From: a bacterium
GTDB lineage: Bacteria; UBA8248
Direction: 5' to 3'
Assembly (NCBI GenBank): GCA_965203325.1
Contig: OZ241875.1
Coordinates: 2,208,001-2,272,000 of the forward strand
Length of the DNA: 64,000 nucleotides
The translations under genes were made by a program, and so were the position numbers. Shown here piece after piece: positions 207 through 53,598 of this stretch. The notes under the pieces were generated by a model that was given only the letters and a program-made list of their open reading frames with translations, had not been told where the DNA came from and did no database searches. Each line of letters begins with the position of its first letter. Positions within the stretch are counted from its first letter, which is position 1.

Positions 207-1394
207 GTGGATGCGGCCATCGAGGCGCAAGCCGTCTCGCTCACCAAGGAGTTGATCGCGATTCCGAGCGAAAACCCCACGGGCGATGAGTTCGCCATGG
301 CGGACCGGATGGAGGCGTTTTTCCGGGCCGTCGGCCTTGAAGCGAAGCGCGAGCGCGTCTCCGAAAGGCGGGAGAACGTGACCGCGGAGATCACCGGCTC
401 GGGAGGCGGCCCCGCCCTCGTCTTTCTCAATCACATGGATACCGTGCCGGCCGGCGAAGGGTGGTCGCGCGACCCGTTTCTCGCCGCCGAAGAAGACGGG
501 AAAATCTGGGGCCGGGGAAGCTGCGACATGAAAGGCGGCATCGCTGCGAGTCTCGCGGCAGTGGAGAACCTAAAAATACGAATCGACGGCGGCGCAAAGG
601 CCAAAGGCACGGTTCGCTGCTGCATGGTGGTGGATGAGGAAAGCGGCCGCATGACCGGCACGGAGGCGGCCATCGCGAGCGGACACATCCATGCGGACGA
701 CATCGTGATTTCCTGCGAGCCGACCGAACTCACCCTGGTGACGGCGCAAAAAGGCGCCATGTGGTTCGAACTCATCTTCAGTGGAAAAAGCGCCCACGCC
801 GCGGCGCCTCACATGGGCGCAGACGCGATTCACGCCGCATCCCACGCCGTGGTGGCGCTTCAGGAGGCGGTGGCGCAAATCCCCTACGAAGATCCCCTGC
901 TGGGGCGATGCACCATGGTCACGAGCATGATCGAAGGAGGCCACAAGACCAACGTGGTCTCCGAGAGATGCGCGCTGCAGATAGACTCGCGTTTCGTCCC
1001 TCCCCTGCGGACAGCCGACATCCAGGGGATCATTCACGAGAAAGCCGCCGGGGCCTGCGCACAAGTGAGCGGGGTCGAATTCTCGCTTCGCGCCACCATT
1101 GCGGACCGTCCGCCCGTGACGGCGGACACCGACAGCGCCGGCGCGAGACTCATTTTCGAGACTTTGGAAGAAGTCCTGGGCGCAGCGCCCAAGCCTGCGG
1201 GGGTGAGCTATTATTCGGACGCGGGCATGGCCGCGGCCCAAACCGGGAGCCGAAACTGCTTTCTCCTGGGACCGGGAAACATCGAGCAAGCCCACACGCC
1301 CGACGAGTTCATCGAAGTCGATTCGCTGAAAAAAGCCGCGCGCGTCTACGGCAGGCTGCTCGAGAAATTCGCGCTGGACGAAAACGCGCCGTAA
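207..1394 (+). CDS. M20 family metallopeptidase (ArgE/DapE-like deacylase)
   Basis: Motifs HMDTVP, GRGSCDMKGG, DEE, GKSAHAA, GGHKTNVV, AHTPDE; GTG start after AGGAGA. Confidence 0.9.
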   Translation: MDAAIEAQAVSLTKELIAIPSENPTGDEFAMADRMEAFFRAVGLEAKRERVSERRENVTAEITGSGGGPALVFLNHMDTVPAGEGWSRDPFLAAEEDGKIWGRGSCDMKGGIAASLAAVENLKIRIDGGAKAKGTVRCCMVVDEESGRMTGTEAAIASGHIHADDIVISCEPTELTLVTAQKGAMWFELIFSGKSAHAAAPHMGADAIHAASHAVVALQEAVAQIPYEDPLLGRCTMVTSMIEGGHKTNVVSERCALQIDSRFVPPLRTADIQGIIHEKAAGACAQVSGVEFSLRATIADRPPVTADTDSAGARLIFETLEEVLGAAPKPAGVSYYSDAGMAAAQTGSRNCFLLGPGNIEQAHTPDEFIEVDSLKKAARVYGRLLEKFALDENAP

Positions 1395-1403
1395 ATATCG
1401 GCA

Positions 1404-3737
1404 TCACTCACCGGCGCGCTGCTCCAGCACCCGGAGCAACTCCATGATGCTGTCGAGCGCTTCCGCCGCGCCGAGTTCCTGAAAGATGAGGCGCGCCTCG
1501 GTCAAACATTCGCGCGAGGCCTCCCATTCGCGCCCCTCGAAATGCACCCGGCCCAGGCTCCCGAGCGCTACTCCCTGAGCGAGAACGCTCCCTTGTTCGC
1601 GGTTGATCTCCAGGGCCGCCTCATACGCCTCGCGCGCTTCGGGCAAATCGCCCCGCGCGTAGTGAATGTTCCCCATGCCGCTCAGGTTCGCCGCCTCGCC
1701 TTTTCTGTTCTCGAGTCCGCGATTCAGCCGCAAGGCGTTCTCGTAATACCGGAGCGCGCGCGTGAATTGCTCCTGCGCCGCAAAGCACACCCCCATTTGA
1801 GAGTACACCAGCGCTTCACCCGCCTTGTCTGCGATTTTCTGGCAGAGGCTCAGCGCATCATCGAGGCTCACCTGCGCCGACTCGTACTCGCCCGCTTCCG
1901 TCAAGACGGAAGCCAGCGCGGTGTGCGCCCGCGCCTCGTTGCGCCTGTTTCCCGACCTGTGGAACAGGTGCGCCGCCTCGGAAAGGTGCTCTCCGGCCTT
2001 TTCCTTGTCCCCCAGACGGCGGAACAACCGGCCGACACGCATGCGCAAGGTGGATAGTTGCTCAAGCCCTCCCTCCGGCCCGATATAGGCGAGCGCCTTC
2101 TCGTAGGATTCCGTCGCCTTCTCGTCATCACCCTTTCGCTGGTAGAAATACCCCATGTTCCGGGAGACTACCGCCAGCACCGAAATATCCCGACCCGCCT
2201 CGCGGAATGCCTCGCGGGAATAGGAAATCGCAGGCTCCACCTTTTCCCGCAGATAAGAAGCCACGGCCAGCGCGTTGAGAACGGGCGCGAGTCGACTCGC
2301 GCGCCGCAGCGATTCCTTGAGGTGTTCCGTCGCATCCTCAGCGCGCCCCAGAATTATCTCGAGAATGGCCAGACGCAGATATTCTTCGGAAGCCGGCGAC
2401 TGCCGGGTTCTCTCGCGTTGACCGAGGTCGATGCCGGCGGCGTTCACGACGCCCGGGGTCCAGGCGGGAAGCTCATGCTCCACGTTTTCCGCCAGGAGCA
2501 AATCTCCCGGATAAATATCCGCCACGAGTTCGCTTATCAATTCAGAGGGCGTGTTCGCCGGAGCCTCATGCGAGGCGGCGGGCGGCAACGCTACGCCGGG
2601 AGCGAATTGCCCCGCATCGTCGTCCGCAGGAAAATCAAGTTCCTCGGGTTCTTCGCCCAAGGCGGCGCCCTGCGAGAAAGCGTCATCATCGACGCGTTCA
2701 CGCTGAATGAGAGAAATGAGATCTACCTCGCCAACACCCGCCGCGGCTTCTTCTTCCGGCTCCGGGGCCGAAGGCGCCTCCTCGGACTCAAGGGCTTGTG
2801 GATGGGGAGAAACCTTATCGGATCCAGCTTCCGCGAGAAGCAGAACTTCGGGCTGAAACGACGGCGGCTCATCTTCTTGCTCTTCGAGTTGTGGTTCCGG
2901 CGGCGATTCGTCCGCGGCTTCCGAAACCTCATCATCCTCTCGCTCCTCACGCACAGAATCTGCGGGAGCATCCGCCACGTCCTCGCCCTCATGCGTGAGG
3001 CGGAGGGCGCCTTCCTCTTCATCATCAGCAGGCACATCGGCGGCGGAAACCGCGTCGTCGCGGACCTCGCTCACAGCGGGAATCCGCATGCGCAGCGGAG
3101 CGTCCGCGCCTTCACTCGTTTCGCCAGTTCCTGAAACCTCTTCCTCATCGGCGAGGGCGCTTTCAGCCTCGAATTGCGTTTCGCGTCGAGGTTCGGCTCC
3201 CGCCGGCAACTCATCCGCCCCGCGAGGGGATTCCGCATCGAGGGGAGCGGGCAATCCCTCCCACCAGGGAGCCTCCGACTCCGGGGCGGACTCTTCATCC
3301 ACGGGGAGCGCAGGCTTTTCGTCATCTTCCGAAATGGCCTCGTCCTGTGTTTTCGGAGGGAGGAACTCATCCTCTTCGAGCACCTCGCGGCCTTCCTGCC
3401 CGATGACCCGCACACCTTCGTCTACGTGATCCAGAGATTCCGGGGAATCCCCGGCTGCCTCACGGAAGCTTCCGCTCTGCGCCGCTTCTTGTTGTTCCTC
3501 TTGGTGGTCCTCATCGACGTCCGGAATGAAATCGTCGATGAAGCGCGAGGAAACATCCTCCCAGCCCGCAGGCGCGCTGCCCCCGGACCCGCCTTCCCAA
3601 ACGCCGCCCCATTCAGGCGCCGAATCTCTTACGCGCCTCAGGGCGCGACGGCGCGTCCATATAACGACGGGAATGCTCAAAAGGGCGAGCACGCCCACGG
3701 CGCCGAACACCGTCTTCCATGTAGCCATTTCAAACAT
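1404..3737 (-). CDS. Membrane-anchored tetratricopeptide-repeat protein with long acidic linker
   Basis: N-terminal hydrophobic helix (VFGAVGVLALLSIPVVIW), long E/D/A/P-rich region, C-terminal TPR repeats; start set at MFEM, overlapping the upstream stop. Confidence 0.8.
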   Translation of the reverse strand: MFEMATWKTVFGAVGVLALLSIPVVIWTRRRALRRVRDSAPEWGGVWEGGSGGSAPAGWEDVSSRFIDDFIPDVDEDHQEEQQEAAQSGSFREAAGDSPESLDHVDEGVRVIGQEGREVLEEDEFLPPKTQDEAISEDDEKPALPVDEESAPESEAPWWEGLPAPLDAESPRGADELPAGAEPRRETQFEAESALADEEEVSGTGETSEGADAPLRMRIPAVSEVRDDAVSAADVPADDEEEGALRLTHEGEDVADAPADSVREEREDDEVSEAADESPPEPQLEEQEDEPPSFQPEVLLLAEAGSDKVSPHPQALESEEAPSAPEPEEEAAAGVGEVDLISLIQRERVDDDAFSQGAALGEEPEELDFPADDDAGQFAPGVALPPAASHEAPANTPSELISELVADIYPGDLLLAENVEHELPAWTPGVVNAAGIDLGQRERTRQSPASEEYLRLAILEIILGRAEDATEHLKESLRRASRLAPVLNALAVASYLREKVEPAISYSREAFREAGRDISVLAVVSRNMGYFYQRKGDDEKATESYEKALAYIGPEGGLEQLSTLRMRVGRLFRRLGDKEKAGEHLSEAAHLFHRSGNRRNEARAHTALASVLTEAGEYESAQVSLDDALSLCQKIADKAGEALVYSQMGVCFAAQEQFTRALRYYENALRLNRGLENRKGEAANLSGMGNIHYARGDLPEAREAYEAALEINREQGSVLAQGVALGSLGRVHFEGREWEASRECLTEARLIFQELGAAEALDSIMELLRVLEQRAGE

Positions 3738-5340
3738 TCGCTCTCTCCCGCCGCGGGAGTTTGCGCAGGGCGCGGCCGGGGCGCGCCCCGGTATGGCTTC
3801 CACCCTCAACGACGACCTCTCCGTTCACGAGAACCATCTCGATTCCCGAGGGATATGCAATGGGGCGTTCATAGGTGCACTCATCGCGTATCTCGTCGGG
3901 ATCGAACAAAACGAGGTCGGCCTTCATTCCGACCGCGAGTCGTCCCCGTTCCGCCATGCCCAACCGCGCGGCGGGAGCGGAGGTCATCTTCCGGATCGCT
4001 TCGGCCATCGGGAAGAGCCCCTCGTCCCGCGCCAGCGCGCCCAAGACGAAGGGAAAGGTGCCGAAATTTCTCGGGTGCGGCCTGCCGGCGCCCAGGGGAG
4101 GCTCGTGCGAGAGCGCGCCCGCGTCCGAACCCACCATGGCGTAGGGTTTCCGAAGAATGCGGCGCATGTTCTCGGGACTCATCATGAAAATGAGAATCTC
4201 GACGTTCATGCGCTCCTCGATCAGCAAATCGAGCATCGCATCCACAGGGGCCGTATTCCGGACATCGCCCAGGCGGGCGAGCGTGAGACCCTCGCAAGGC
4301 TGGTTCGCCTCCGTGAAGACGCGGCTGATCAGGATGTTCTCCCAATAGGAAGATTCGGGGTGCGCTCGTGCGATTTCGTCCCGAATCTTCGCCCTGCTGT
4401 CCGGGTTCACGAGGCGCTCCACCTTCTCACCGAGAGCGCCGTCATGCGCCCAATCGGGCAACAATGCGCTCAGGTGGGTGTTCGAGGCCGTATAGGGATA
4501 GCGATCGCAGGTCACGTCCTCGCCCCTCGCGCGCGCGCGCTCGATGCGCTCGAAGGCCTCATCGAGCTTGTCCCAATTCCGCTCGCCCGCCGTCTTCAAA
4601 TGGCTGATCTGAAGCGGCAGCCCCACCGATGCGGCAGCACTTATCACCTCGTCCATCGCTTCGAGCAAACCGTCTCCCTCGCTGCGCATGTGGGTGGCCA
4701 GTAATCCCCCGCCTCGCGCCGAGACCCGGCAAAGGGCCGTGAGTTCGTCCTTATCCGCGAAACAGGCCGGGGCGTAGACCAATCCGGTGGAGAGGCCGAA
4801 AGCCCCCTGCTCCATTCCCGCGGAGAGCATCCCTTCCATCGCGGCGAGTTCCTCCGCGCGGGCCGGGCGCGCCTCACCCCCCATCACGCTCGCGCGAATC
4901 GTGTTGTGGCCGACCAGATGGGCGTAGTTGATCGATACACCCACCTCGTCCACATGGTCGAGGTGCCCGCCTACGCTCTGAAACGGGAGTTCCAGGTCGA
5001 ATTGCTCCCGATACCATTTCTTGCGCTCCTCGGCCTCGGCCCCGTGAATCGGCGAGGCGGCGTAGCCGCAGTTGCCTCCCACGTCGGTCGTCACCCCCTG
5101 GCGGACCTTCGCGTGCGCCTCGGGATTGATGAGGAGGTAATAATCGGAATGTCCGTGAATGTCGACGAACCCGGGACTCAGGGCCAGGCCCCTCGCGTCG
5201 ACCTCGCGATGAGCGGAGCCGCTCACTTCGGGACCGACCTCCGCGATGACATCACCGCGAACGGCGAGCGCGCCTTCATACGGGAGGTCGCCCAGACCAT
5301 CGAATATCATGGCATGGTGAAATATGACGTCATACATCAT
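3730..5340 (-). CDS. N-acyl-D-amino-acid deacylase (amidohydrolase family)
   Basis: PGFVDIHGHSD, GVTT..GGNCG, HMRSEG, SHLK, GSD, HPRNFGTFP motifs. Confidence 0.9.
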   Translation of the reverse strand: MMYDVIFHHAMIFDGLGDLPYEGALAVRGDVIAEVGPEVSGSAHREVDARGLALSPGFVDIHGHSDYYLLINPEAHAKVRQGVTTDVGGNCGYAASPIHGAEAEERKKWYREQFDLELPFQSVGGHLDHVDEVGVSINYAHLVGHNTIRASVMGGEARPARAEELAAMEGMLSAGMEQGAFGLSTGLVYAPACFADKDELTALCRVSARGGGLLATHMRSEGDGLLEAMDEVISAAASVGLPLQISHLKTAGERNWDKLDEAFERIERARARGEDVTCDRYPYTASNTHLSALLPDWAHDGALGEKVERLVNPDSRAKIRDEIARAHPESSYWENILISRVFTEANQPCEGLTLARLGDVRNTAPVDAMLDLLIEERMNVEILIFMMSPENMRRILRKPYAMVGSDAGALSHEPPLGAGRPHPRNFGTFPFVLGALARDEGLFPMAEAIRKMTSAPAARLGMAERGRLAVGMKADLVLFDPDEIRDECTYERPIAYPSGIEMVLVNGEVVVEGGSHTGARPGRALRKLPRRERANV

Positions 5341-5406: not shown

Positions 5407-6624
5407 TCATTCGCCTGCAATCGGCGGCGCGCCCGACGCCCATTTCCCGCCTATCATCGCGGCGATCGGCTCCATGGAACCGGGTTCGAGAACGCAAATA
5501 TCGGCGGGCAGACCCGGGGCGAGACGGCCCTGCCCGGATCCCAAACCCAAGACGCGCGCGGGGTTTCGCGTGGCCGTCGCCAGAGCGCAAGCGGTGTCGA
5601 GCTCACACCAATGCCTGAGCCGGGGGAGCATCCCCGAGAGCGCGAGGCGGCTGCCGGTCAATACGCCCTTGCGCATCACCGCGTCGCCCGGCGTCTCGCC
5701 GCTCGTCCCGTCCAGGCCGGCTCGGGGCCTTAATCCCCCGTCGGCCACCAGGTCCGAGGTGAGGACCGTGCGCTCCCAGCCCCTAGCGCGAACGAACGAC
5801 GCGAGCGATTGCTGTGCCACGTGCACACCGTCCGCAATCAGGCCGGCGGAAAGCCTCCCGTCGTTCTGCACGTAATCCATCGGCGAGGCGCTCCTGTGCG
5901 CGGGCGTCTCCGGTTGGCCGTAGCGATTGAACGCATGGACCGCGAACGCGCCGCCCGCCTCCAGAAACGCCTCCACGCAAGCGGCCGAAGCCCGGGTGTG
6001 GCCAATGGCGGGAACGACGCCCTTCTCCGCCAGCCAGCGTGCGAAATCCGCCGCGCCCGGCACTTCGGGGGATAGCGTCACCATAGCCAGTCCAGGCGCG
6101 CCGTTCACGCCCCACCCCCCGGCGGCTCGCGCGATCGCCTCGACCTCTTCTTTCGAGGGTACGCGAATCTGCTCTCGCGGATGCGCCCCCCTCATCTCCG
6201 GCTCCAGGTACGGCCCCTCCAGGTGAACGCCCAGGATGCGCGCCTCGGCGCAGGCAGCTTCTTGCTGAAGAGCCCACGCTTCGCTCACCACGCAGGCCGC
6301 GTCGATCAACTCGTCCCGGGAAGCCGTGGTGAGTGTGGGCAGAAAAGCGGTCGTTCCGCGCCTCGCCAAGCCCCGGGCGATACGCCGCACGCCGGCGGCG
6401 TCCGCCGCGAGCAGCGCATCCGCGCCCAGGCCGTTCACCTGGAGATCCACGAAGCCGGGGCACACCAGCGCGCCCCCGAGGTCGAGCACCTCGTCCGCGG
6501 GGGCCGATGGACAGGCGCCGCGCGGCCCCACATACGACAAAACGCCCTCCTCGATAACGAGGAGGGCGTCCGCCATTCTCTCGAGCGGCGTATGCGCCGT
6601 CACGCCCACGAGGCGCAGGGCCAT
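5407..6624 (-). CDS. nagA: N-acetylglucosamine-6-phosphate deacetylase
   Basis: PGFVDLQVNG, GTTAFLPT, GVHLEGPY, GAH, TLSPE, GHT, HAFN, IADGVHV. Confidence 0.85.
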   Translation of the reverse strand: MALRLVGVTAHTPLERMADALLVIEEGVLSYVGPRGACPSAPADEVLDLGGALVCPGFVDLQVNGLGADALLAADAAGVRRIARGLARRGTTAFLPTLTTASRDELIDAACVVSEAWALQQEAACAEARILGVHLEGPYLEPEMRGAHPREQIRVPSKEEVEAIARAAGGWGVNGAPGLAMVTLSPEVPGAADFARWLAEKGVVPAIGHTRASAACVEAFLEAGGAFAVHAFNRYGQPETPAHRSASPMDYVQNDGRLSAGLIADGVHVAQQSLASFVRARGWERTVLTSDLVADGGLRPRAGLDGTSGETPGDAVMRKGVLTGSRLALSGMLPRLRHWCELDTACALATATRNPARVLGLGSGQGRLAPGLPADICVLEPGSMEPIAAMIGGKWASGAPPIAGE

Positions 6625-36694: not shown

Positions 36695-38023
<1,329 letters not shown>

Positions 38024-38195
38024 AACCCATATAACGCTTTAAAAACCAACCGTTTGCATTTTCAGTTTCATCCCGGCCGAAAAATCCGGGGTTCCACCCC
38101 CGCCGCTCCCGTCCGGCAATTCCCGAAGGGCGCACGGAGCGGAAACCTTTGCAGAATCTTTACCCACCGCCGCCGCCTTCGCTGATACCATTCAA

Positions 38196-38510
38196 GCCGT
38201 TTGAGCAGCCTCGAAGGGTGTTTGGAGAGGCGACGGATGAATCCGGCGGGGGACGCCGAGTTGCTTCGCCCTCATGGACGAGTCGTCGGCGGGCCGGATA
38301 CGCCGCGCGGGGGTCAAAGGCCCCGCACAAGGGTCTTCCCGCCCCGGAGACGGGAGCGCGGTCCAGTCGCGCGGATGCGCACCCGGATTCCGGCCGGTTG
38401 TCCGCCTTGTTGGCTCGGGCGGCTTCGGTCGATTCCTCCCGAAGCGGAAAGCCCGAACGCGGGGTCTCCCCGCGCGGCCCACCCCACGCCCCGAACACGG
38501 CAATCGCTCA
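38196..38510 (+). ncRNA. Candidate structured non-coding RNA of unknown class
   Basis: End-to-end closing helices plus at least six internal hairpins with G.U pairs on the + strand; upstream extended -10 (TGaTACCAT at 38183-38191). Confidence 0.45.
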
Positions 38511-38666
38511 CTCTTCAATCGCGATTGACCCCGACACGGCTCATCGCGCCCTGAAGGCCCGCAACTCCCCGCATTGCATTTCCCCGCATTTGCTGTCATG
38601 GCGGGACCGGCCGGTCGTGGCAGAATCCTCCTGCGTCGCGGCCTGGCGGCGTCATTTCCCAGGAAA

Positions 38667-38737
38667 TTTAATTTTCAGAAATACCCCGTCAATTTATCGA
38701 TATTTATCGAATTTTACGGGAATTTTCAGGAATTCCA
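38667..38737 (-). repeat. AT-rich phased A-tract element, copy 2
   Basis: Inverted homologue of 21758-21828. Confidence 0.7.
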
Positions 38738-38982
38738 TTTTCTCGAACGAAACCGCCCGGCTTCGCCATCATACGCGCCCGCGCCCCGAGCAGCGCGACG
38801 GCAATTGCGGGCAAATGCGGGTCGTTTCGAACGGGATGCGGAGAATTTCGTCCGGACGCCGGGCGGGAGCGGTGAGCGCTTCGCCGCAAATGCGGGCAAA
38901 TGCGCCCCGGCGCGCGAGGGATGGAGACCCGGACGGAGGATGCGGAATCCGACCCGGCCGTCGCGGGTCAATCGCGACCGAA

Positions 38983-39294
38983 GAGGGGCCGGTGAAAAAG
39001 TCTGGCATGCGACCCCTACGAAGATCGCTCTCCACCGAGGAAAATTTCAAATCAACTCCCCCCTTGAGGGGGAGTCGAAGAGGCCGAGCCTTGGCGAAGG
39101 CCGATTCGGTGGGGGGAGGTTTTTATCTGTGGCTTGTCCCCCCACCGATTCGGTTTCGGGTTTACACCCTCACCTCATCGACTCCCCCTCAAGGGGGGAG
39201 TGAAATTTAGCGCTCTCCTTCTGGGACTTTTCACCAGCCCCCTCCTCAGGGGGCATCGTTTTTACCCCCCTGACAAGGGGGGGTAGGGGGGGGT
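38983..39294. mobile_element. Nested MITE/REP-like element
   Basis: Outer inverted repeats GAGGGGCCGGTGAAAAAGTC/GACTTTTCACCAGCCCC enclose a 147-bp unit (39055-39201) with perfect 24-bp terminal inverted repeats ACTCCCCCCTTGAGGGGGAGTCGA; a further palindrome follows at 39264-39294. Confidence 0.75.
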
Positions 39295-39389
39295 GGTTTT
39301 CCAGTCGAGAGGGGCGCCGCCTCTCCCCGCTCGGGATTGATTAAAAACCCCATCTCGCCATGCTAGAATAATGGGAGCGGCTCTCGCGC

Positions 39390-39475
39390 GGAGGGATGGC
39401 CGAGCGGCCGAAGGCGGTGGTCTTGAAAACCACTGAGCGAAAGCTCCGGGGGTTCGAATCCCTCTCCCTCCGCCA
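39390..39475 (+). tRNA. tRNA-Ser (anticodon TGA)
   Basis: GGAGGGA acceptor stem, GTGGT-CTTGAAA-ACCAC anticodon arm, long variable arm, GGTTCGAATCC, G discriminator + CCA. Confidence 0.96.
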
Positions 39476-39577
39476 GTTCATACGGGCGGGCCTGGAGAAA
39501 GCCTGAGTTTCTCGTAGCCGTTCCATGCGGGCATCGCCGCTCAGCCATTGCCATTCACCGACCCCTTTGCACCGTCC

Positions 39578-53339: not shown

Positions 53340-53598
53340 TCCGCCGTTGAAGGGCCCCATACCCCGTGAGCGGCGCGCAGACCCTGCGATGGAGTCGACC
53401 GGTCAGGCGCCCTCGTGGCACCCGGGAGTGTCCACTTACCGCTGCTTCCTTCCGGACCTGACGGGGTTCGCGGGCTCCCGCCGCACGAGACCCAACCGGC
53501 CGAATCCATCGCAGGCTCTTCCATAAATCCTACCCCGTCCCCCGGCCTTTGGGAAGCGGATGCGCCGCCATTTTGGCGACGGCGAACCATGCGGCGGA
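53340..53598 (-). ncRNA. ffs: Signal recognition particle RNA, apparently long form
   Basis: Conserved TCAGGTCCGGAAGGAAGCAGC helix 8 on the minus strand; extended pairing to about 53378-53520; terminal TCCGCCG/CGGCGGA pairing; upstream of dnaX. Core is secure, outer ends are inferred. Confidence 0.9.

Follow-up and report, generated by a model that had tools for sequence, protein, structure and literature searches.

A candidate structured small RNA gene with a distinctive extended -10 promoter between serS and tRNA-Ser(UGA) in a genus of uncultured Nitrospinota

The raiA and ROOL RNAs are examples of orphan structured non-coding RNAs of bacteria. Comparative genomics has yielded a number of such classes (PMC8632094 and PMC11109978). 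The locus described here resembles them in being a GC-rich, multi-domain, intergenic non-coding unit that is supported by base pairing and has no single fixed downstream gene. It differs in its far narrower range (one genus, 14 copies, about six lineages) and its much weaker covariation. The locus lies in a 64,000-nucleotide stretch of a bacterial genome (the window; positions are counted from its first letter), for which an earlier note had proposed a multi-branched non-coding RNA at 38196-38510. A conserved, single-copy, non-coding and promoter-led unit with held-out covariation is what stands of that proposal; its end at 38510, its closing helices, some of its internal stems and its folding energy do not. 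On balance, the sequence comparisons lead us to lean towards a functional stand-alone structured small RNA gene of about 280 nt on the + strand, belonging to no described family and present in one Nitrospinota genus.

The upstream neighbour of the unit is serS, encoding seryl-tRNA synthetase (36698-38023, + strand, an ORF of 441 aa), and the downstream neighbour is tRNA-Ser(UGA) (39390-39475, + strand, called by ARAGORN and Rfam). The gap between them, given before as 1.37 kb, indeed measures 1366 nt, but most of it consists of two repeat elements. Searches within the genome divide the gap into three parts, namely single-copy sequence from 38024 to about 38543, a low-copy repeat and a high-copy palindromic repeat, and finer tiling shows that 38100-38489 is unique. 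The low-copy element (38558-38958) has three long copies elsewhere at 80-85% identity, as well as shorter fragments; its centre is AT-rich, CCCGCATTTGC / GCAAATGCGGG motifs lie near both of its ends, and in genome G018 it directly follows serS. The high-copy element (about 38964 to 39303) accounts for most of the gap's 104 genome matches, many of which are on both strands at one place. Between serS and the unit lies a poorly conserved spacer (38024-38135), used as the local near-neutral control; in the seven close relatives that share the serS context its identity is 0.765 and 30% of its columns are gapped. Within this spacer, just 3' of serS, a terminator-like hairpin followed by a T run is found on the - strand (38087-38102), with no evident - strand gene nearby to use it.

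As the earlier note had claimed, the candidate belongs to no known family. Within 38024-38560, Rfam 15 gave no match either when the whole window was searched at gathering thresholds or when 37950-39500 was searched at E<=10, and with 38185-38500 alone, again at E<=10, the best E value was 3.7, with no family. The common housekeeping RNAs are accounted for elsewhere: RNase P RNA (RF00010) does not match the candidate and is found at G000:C1:3649534-3649897 of the window's genome (322 bits), 6S RNA (RF00013) does not match it and is found at G000:C1:3212560-3212742 (80.6 bits), ARAGORN detected no tmRNA, an RNA type with tRNA-like ends and a reading frame for a tag peptide, in the window and the genome's tmRNA lies at 3036874-3037234, tRNA-Sec also lies elsewhere in the genome, and SRP RNA occupies 53398-53497 of the window, outside the candidate. 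In form, 6S RNA is a long irregular hairpin with a central bubble, while the candidate is multi-branched. RNAs of the CsrB/Rsm type, which act as protein sponges, carry GGA motifs in hairpin loops; in 38196-38483 about nine GGA triplets were counted by eye, against about six expected by a rough hand estimate from composition, and most of them lie outside hairpin loops. No riboswitch or T-box matched the candidate region in Rfam at E<=10. A leader of either type was rejected on context too, since the downstream feature differs by locus (tRNA-Ser, an RTX-repeat protein, a cadherin/PPC protein or an IS transposase); these features lie 0.36-2.4 kb from the unit, and at least two of them have their own promoters.

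The distribution of the unit is narrow. When 40 related genomes were searched with BLAST, 10 that belong to the genus matched the single-copy part, with identities of 74-92%. With a covariance model built for the core (38234-38456; 223 positions, 73 pairs), the unit was detected in 12 of 23 genomes of the genus, with two copies in G013 and a weak match in G005 (53 bits), and not in the other 11. The model found nothing in 19 genomes from eight other genera of the family or in eight genomes representing two further families of the class; as only a subset of first-look candidates was scored, weak relatives could be missed in these searches. A pattern scan of the genomes of 185,579 species returned 70 matches; only 10 proved genuine, and these belonged to genomes identified before, and the same kind of scan on metagenome contigs gave 10 matches with one true, nearly identical to the G020 copy. 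In viral contigs, four pattern matches were obtained and the covariance model confirmed none of them (best 10.4 bits); the 30 matches there to the promoter pattern, which is AT-rich, are probably due to chance. Within the genomes searched, the unit thus appears confined to one genus of uncultured Nitrospinota. A full-text literature search returned no paper on RNAs of Nitrospinota. In two metatranscriptomes of relatives (word shares 0.10 and 0.05), contigs at 85% likeness cover the serS of a relative and parts of the repeat element, and nothing covers 37990-38521; this gap counts neither way, because contigs from relatives cannot show that a small RNA is absent.

In an alignment of 14 sequences, conservation starts at about 38136 rather than at 38196, and the conserved unit is 38136-38474, in which a promoter precedes about 280 nt of non-coding, single-copy sequence. 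The candidate RNA itself (38196-38474, + strand) is single copy in the genome. Its limits are provisional, the 5' end being placed from the -10 element and the 3' end at the last conserved hairpin, and the RNA most probably extends no further than 38474-38486. An end at 38510, as first proposed, could not be kept: the 3' part of that stretch lies in or beside a repeat and is deleted in G012, the closest relative, which lacks 38463-38542. The repeat concerned is a REP-like palindromic module (38499-38532, + strand) with 80 pattern matches in the genome and 0 in the control, and it lies outside the conserved single-copy unit; tiles over 38490-38539 have seven further copies in the genome. The module ends in ...ATTGACCCC, and many of its copies occur as inverted pairs 75 nt apart, which look like the termini of an element of about 95 bp.

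We take this module of about 80 copies to be of the REP / REPIN type. The two GC hairpins of the unit and its 3' flank are copies of it, as in such repeats, whereas 38136-38454, which holds the promoter, the long hairpin and the junction, occurs once in the genome. A MITE- or REP-type repeat was rejected as an account of the whole unit: 38100-38489 is single copy, and multi-copy sequence is limited to 38490-38539 and the extended hairpins of other species. These hairpin extensions, seen in G007, G022, copy 2 of G013 and G005, are full inverted copies of the module. The extended G007 form of the hairpin at 38307-38326 scores 46 against the module as reverse complement and 15 in the forward direction, and that of the hairpin at 38458-38474 scores 32 and 16. 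Variable length of the GC hairpins was therefore discarded as evidence for an RNA, and the short GC hairpins in the window are truncated remnants of the module. REP-like palindromes in or beside an RNA gene can mimic RNA helices, which is a warning for RNA discovery in repeat-rich, GC-rich genomes.

The consensus structure was computed with RNAalifold on 11 sequences and mapped onto an independent MAFFT alignment of 14 sequences. From 5' to 3' on the + strand it comprises a 5' hairpin GCCUC...GAGGC with a conserved G/U-rich loop (38208-38231; helix 2, paired in 93% of cells), a long hairpin with an invariant asymmetric internal loop GGGGGA (38236-38304; helices 3-5, 90-96% paired, five pairs changed on both sides), a short GC hairpin that is a truncated inverted copy of the REP-like module (38307-38326; no pair changed on both sides), a three-way-junction domain with the invariant stretch GUCGCGCGGAUGCGCACCC (38331-38454; helices 7-11, 88-93% paired, 13 pairs changed on both sides) and a terminal GC hairpin CGCGGGG-UCU-CCCCGCG (38458-38474). 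The last is REP-derived, is deleted in G012 and has no U run after it; it is a possible 3' end. Two features would mark a stand-alone small RNA gene: a promoter of its own appears to be present, and a 3' end defined by an intrinsic terminator was not found, as a terminator scan returned none on the + strand between 38196 and 38560. A search for a closing helix or pseudoknot was also made from the loop of the 5' hairpin; in each sequence its G/U-rich heptamer could pair equally well with two or three partners, the candidate CGAACGC occurring at two or three places, and the search was abandoned with no partner assignable.

All ten helices quoted in the earlier note, and its extended -10, are present in the sequence at or within one base of the places given. 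Taken as a whole, that structure has 78.9% of its cells paired, against 90.0% for the alignment consensus. Its ATCCGGC/GCCGGAT and CGCCGA/TCGGCG stems and the two short GC hairpins are supported. The closing helices fail: across the 14 sequences only 64%, 78% and 71% of their cells are paired, and their 3' arms (38487-38510) lie in or beside the REP-like module. The TTCCCG/CGGGAG and TCGGGC..GCTTCGG/CCGAAGC..GCCCGA stems reach 80.7%, 84.5% and 64.6% and give way to a competing three-way junction at 88-93%; both the stems placed within 38415-38456 and the TTCCCG/CGGGAG stem compete with this junction model.

Across the 14 sequences, the 91 pairs of the consensus are kept in 90.0% of cells, compared with 36-47% when the partners are slid. 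Changes on both sides of a pair occur in 18 of the 91, against 8.4 +/- 2.1 in shuffles (0/500 reach this count), and all 18 lie in the long hairpin and the junction, with none in the two GC hairpins. Because the consensus had been chosen on many of the same sequences, a held-out test was run in which the structure was derived from the seven close relatives only and scored on five distant copies; for the null, 3' partners were permuted 2000 times among pairs of the same type in G000, the window's genome. The five distant copies together had 0.892 of their pairs kept, against 0.841 +/- 0.009 in the null (0/2000). Taken singly, the two G013 copies reached 0.864 (null 0.767, 1/2000) and 0.859 (null 0.800, 7/2000), G020 reached 0.916 (null 0.867, 10/2000) and G007 0.929 (null 0.899, 100/2000). 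The G005 copy showed no signal (0.575, null 0.584). Double changes that keep a pair numbered 16 in the five distant copies taken together, against 5.2 +/- 1.9 in the null (0/2000). Base pairing is thus kept across species beyond partner-permuted controls, and the covariation expected among homologues of a structured RNA is borne out, with moderate support, as the effective diversity is low (14 sequences from about six lineages) and the fold is not unique. The G005 copy is decayed: its pairing is lost and its promoter is kept.

Folding energy gives a different picture. On the + strand, 38196-38510 folds no better than dinucleotide shuffles (z=-1.48, 9/100 shuffles as good), a result that the earlier note had itself named as counting against its proposal. 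The sub-domains do no better (z=-0.35, -0.01 and -0.65), and on the - strand the same stretch gives z=-2.56. The minimum-energy fold of the G000 copy is not conserved (0.722 paired, null 0.712). Long-range pairings proposed by RNAalifold vary with the set of sequences, and when all 14 are used, including G005, a different and poorer fold results (-87 kcal/mol); the consensus fold is therefore not unique and is sensitive to the input.

Watson-Crick covariation is symmetric between strands, and in the held-out test a signal was seen on the - strand as well (0.857, null 0.830, 3/2000). The excess of pairing over the null is 0.051 on the + strand and 0.027 on the - strand, and the consensus energies are -128.4 and -112.3 kcal/mol, respectively. 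Changes on a single side of a pair keep it in 46 cases and break it in 37 on the + strand, compared with 35 and 52 on the - strand. There are 146 G.U cells against 34 A.C cells, and 10 of the 91 pairs are mostly G.U, so that the argument for the + strand from G.U pairs, already made in the earlier note, proved sound. The + strand is favoured as the RNA strand, and the direction of the promoter agrees.

Sequence identity by itself says less. At the four-fold degenerate sites of serS identity to G000 ranges from 0.88 to 0.65, and in the RNA from 0.93 to 0.56; in the distant copies the RNA, at 0.73-0.81, is close to the value for those sites of serS (0.70-0.77). The genus has therefore diverged only slightly, and alignability or conservation alone proves little about function. 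This closeness to synonymous sites favours an account in which the unit has no present function: a copied promoter cassette, neutral DNA and REP-like palindromes, alignable as the genus is young, with an apparent structure made of palindromes and of selecting the best fold. Folding energies no better than those of shuffles, the REP origin of two hairpins, the absence of the unit from 11 of 23 genomes with its decay in G005, and the instability of the consensus fold are all in keeping with it. We nevertheless regard it as unlikely, since the contrast between unit and surroundings is sharp. Among the seven close relatives gaps make up less than 4% of the promoter, junction and long hairpin, against 30% of the adjoining spacer; identity there is 0.938 in the promoter, 0.890 in the 5' hairpin, 0.862 in the long hairpin and 0.906 in the junction, and the coding end of serS is 0.921 identical. 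Moreover, the held-out covariation falls entirely in the non-repeat domains, and DNA palindromes would not give single-side changes that are kept more often on the + than on the - strand. Promoter and body are also kept together in five upstream contexts (serS, a cyclase operon, integrase genes, OsmC/AhpC genes and a YcaO gene).

The unit is discrete, single copy and non-coding. The possibility that the region encodes a small protein arises from one + frame that is stop-free in 12 of 14 copies and from ORFs of 84-353 aa that overlap it. Open frames are expected by chance at 72% G+C, and the remaining frames have almost as few stops; the 84-aa ORF does not keep its start codon, the frame is broken by indels of 1 and 2 nt in distant copies, and substitutions show no 3-base periodicity ([21,25,30], p=0.45; [46,50,53], p=0.78). 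A coding function is accordingly hardly credible, and the view that this part of the gap holds no credible protein stands.

Activator sites of the PhoB/OmpR type consist of direct repeats in 11-bp phase that replace the -35 element of a promoter. The most conserved part of the unit is a promoter-like motif of comparable layout, upstream of the proposed RNA. It consists of two direct repeats CTTTGC / CTTTAC (38147-38163, + strand), 11 bp apart from start to start and with letters invariant in all 14 aligned copies, and an extended -10 element TGATACCAT (38183-38191, + strand) that begins 19 nt after the repeats and keeps the form TG-R-TA-S-Y-AT in 14/14 copies. The motif CTTTRC-N5-CTTTA...CTGRTA is thus present in every aligned copy, the decayed one of G005 included, and the repeats are a probable activator site overlapping the -35 region. 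A consensus promoter scan made no call at 38183-38191, because the spacing between -35 and -10 is too long and only 8/12 positions match. In the 23 genomes of the genus, the combined promoter motif has 15 sites against 0 control matches. Twelve are at genomic copies of the RNA, of which there are 13 (the G012 copy is missed because its spacer is shorter), and three are at other loci. Two of these three are orthologous and precede the gene of a secreted cadherin-like protein with a ribosome-binding site; the third precedes a weak VRR-NUC-like ORF. TGn-type extended -10 elements are apparently also found at the 6S RNA and tRNA-Ser genes of the window's genome. These -10 elements, the 15 sites against none and the reuse at other loci suggest that the motif is probably a real, reusable, activator-dependent promoter. 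As in PhoB/OmpR sites, 6-bp direct repeats at 11-bp spacing stand just upstream of an extended -10, and four tandem CTTTAC repeats are found at one of the two cadherin-like loci. Unlike such sites, the motif shows no enrichment in the genome of the window, with 42 matches and 90 for the control, and the sole exact site there is that of the RNA; we know of no named box that the CTTTAC repeat matches.

At the two cadherin-like loci (L175 in G020, positions 1470-1541, and L176 in G013) the CTTTAC-repeat promoter precedes a secreted protein with a cadherin-like beta-sandwich domain, and a staphylococcal-nuclease homologue lies upstream. A start similar to the 5' hairpin (38208-38231) follows the same promoter at a protein-coding locus, so this hairpin seems to travel with the promoter. 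Separately, another promoter-like stretch (TTCATGAAAATCCCC ... TGTGGTA) is common to L148 of G022 (5860-5930) and L145 of G007 (6135-6200), where it precedes different secreted-protein genes, one for a cadherin/PPC protein in G022 and one for an RTX repeat protein in G007.

If the unit is a stand-alone small RNA gene, transcription would start at about 38196 from the extended -10 promoter, the upstream half of which, with two CTTTAC repeats in 11-bp phase, has the layout of a site for a winged-helix activator. The RNA would fold as a string of domains, from the 5' hairpin through the long hairpin with its GGGGGA loop and the three-way junction to the two REP-derived GC hairpins, and its 3' end is probably formed by the last of these. 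With little certainty, it may act in trans, its invariant loops binding a protein or another RNA, and, equally tentatively, it might be switched on together with the few other units under the same promoter, one of which encodes the secreted cadherin-like protein. A wider version of this reading would make it a new class of regulatory RNA of about 280 nt in an apparently sponge-associated Nitrospinota clade, with an activator that reads the 11-bp-phased CTTTAC repeats and also drives secreted cadherin-like proteins, as part of a regulon for host interaction; we hold this wider version to be rather doubtful. If transcribed, the unit would represent a family of structured RNAs not described before, in a symbiont lineage that is uncultured, and the distinctive promoter that it shares with surface-protein genes offers a handle on its regulation; the wider impact is limited by the narrow range.

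The position of the unit raises the question of whether it serves the tRNA gene instead, as an extra promoter and long structured leader of the tRNA-Ser(UGA) transcript with a role in cis, the RNA being a by-product of tRNA maturation. In keeping with this, 9 of 13 genomic loci have tRNA-Ser(tga) on the same strand 0.36-2.4 kb further downstream, including three without serS upstream (G020, copy 2 of G013 and G007); the window's genome has a single tRNA-Ser(tga) gene; and G005 keeps the promoter though the body has decayed. By comparison, serS is upstream in 8 of the 13 loci by tblastn. The tRNA nonetheless has its own promoter directly upstream, both in G000 (39341-39369, + strand; TTAAAA, 17 nt, TGCTAGAAT; 9/12 positions plus a TG extension in the consensus scan) and in G020, and the 360 to 2400 nt in between consist mostly of repeat elements with terminator-like hairpins. 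Of the four loci that remain, two lack a tRNA within 5 kb, a third lacks one within 1.5 kb and the fourth is at a contig end. Promoter and body are intact at the first two, in G022 and in copy 1 of G013 (180 and 194 bits), and serS-tRNA-Ser spacers are normal in genomes that lack the unit. A leader function is thus improbable, and the stand-alone small RNA gene remains the reading we prefer.

Genes for tRNA, tmRNA and small RNAs are landmarks of variable regions, and the unit resembles them in lying beside tRNA-Ser amid inserted DNA, with integrases adjoining it in two genomes. It differs from them in that no att-type duplication of a 3' end was found for it and that ARAGORN and Rfam detected nothing tRNA- or tmRNA-like in it. 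In G018 (L131, 1788-1877), the last codons and stop of serS are collinear with 38542-38635 of the window, 520 nt downstream of serS here; the serS 3' end itself corresponds to 38542-38556 (+ strand). Relative to G018, therefore, the unit is a block of about 520 bp (38013/38028-38541) that is either present or absent, and an imperfect direct repeat of the end of serS flanks it; this would imply insertion or deletion by recombination between two similar copies of that end. Such a block, the two copies in G013 and the pairs of tyrosine integrase genes next to the unit in G007 and at copy 1 of G013 could also point to the cargo or end piece of a small non-autonomous integrative element, with pairing used for recognition at the DNA level, a reading compatible with a transcribed RNA. 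We consider it very unlikely, as the integrases are on opposite sides and differently oriented in the two genomes, no flanking repeats were found at the integrase loci with a motif that is unspecific, 11 of 12 carriers have one copy per genome, and no viral homologue was found. The att-like repeats tried were dropped, because their motif occurs 136 times in the genome and just once at each locus. The integrase genes are in tandem and encode Arm-DNA-binding domains (L145 of G007, 2196-4552; L146 of G013, 1198-3170), and the G013 pair lies beside an IS transposase.

Genomes that lack the unit have either a spacer made of repeats only, as in G018, or the compact serS-tRNA-tRNA order of G015. In the latter (L141, 1893-2160), tRNA-Ser(tga) and then tRNA-Ser(gct) follow about 90 nt after serS, which may be the ancestral arrangement. 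In the window, unlike in G015, the tRNA-Ser(tga) and tRNA-Ser(gct) genes are 9 kb apart.
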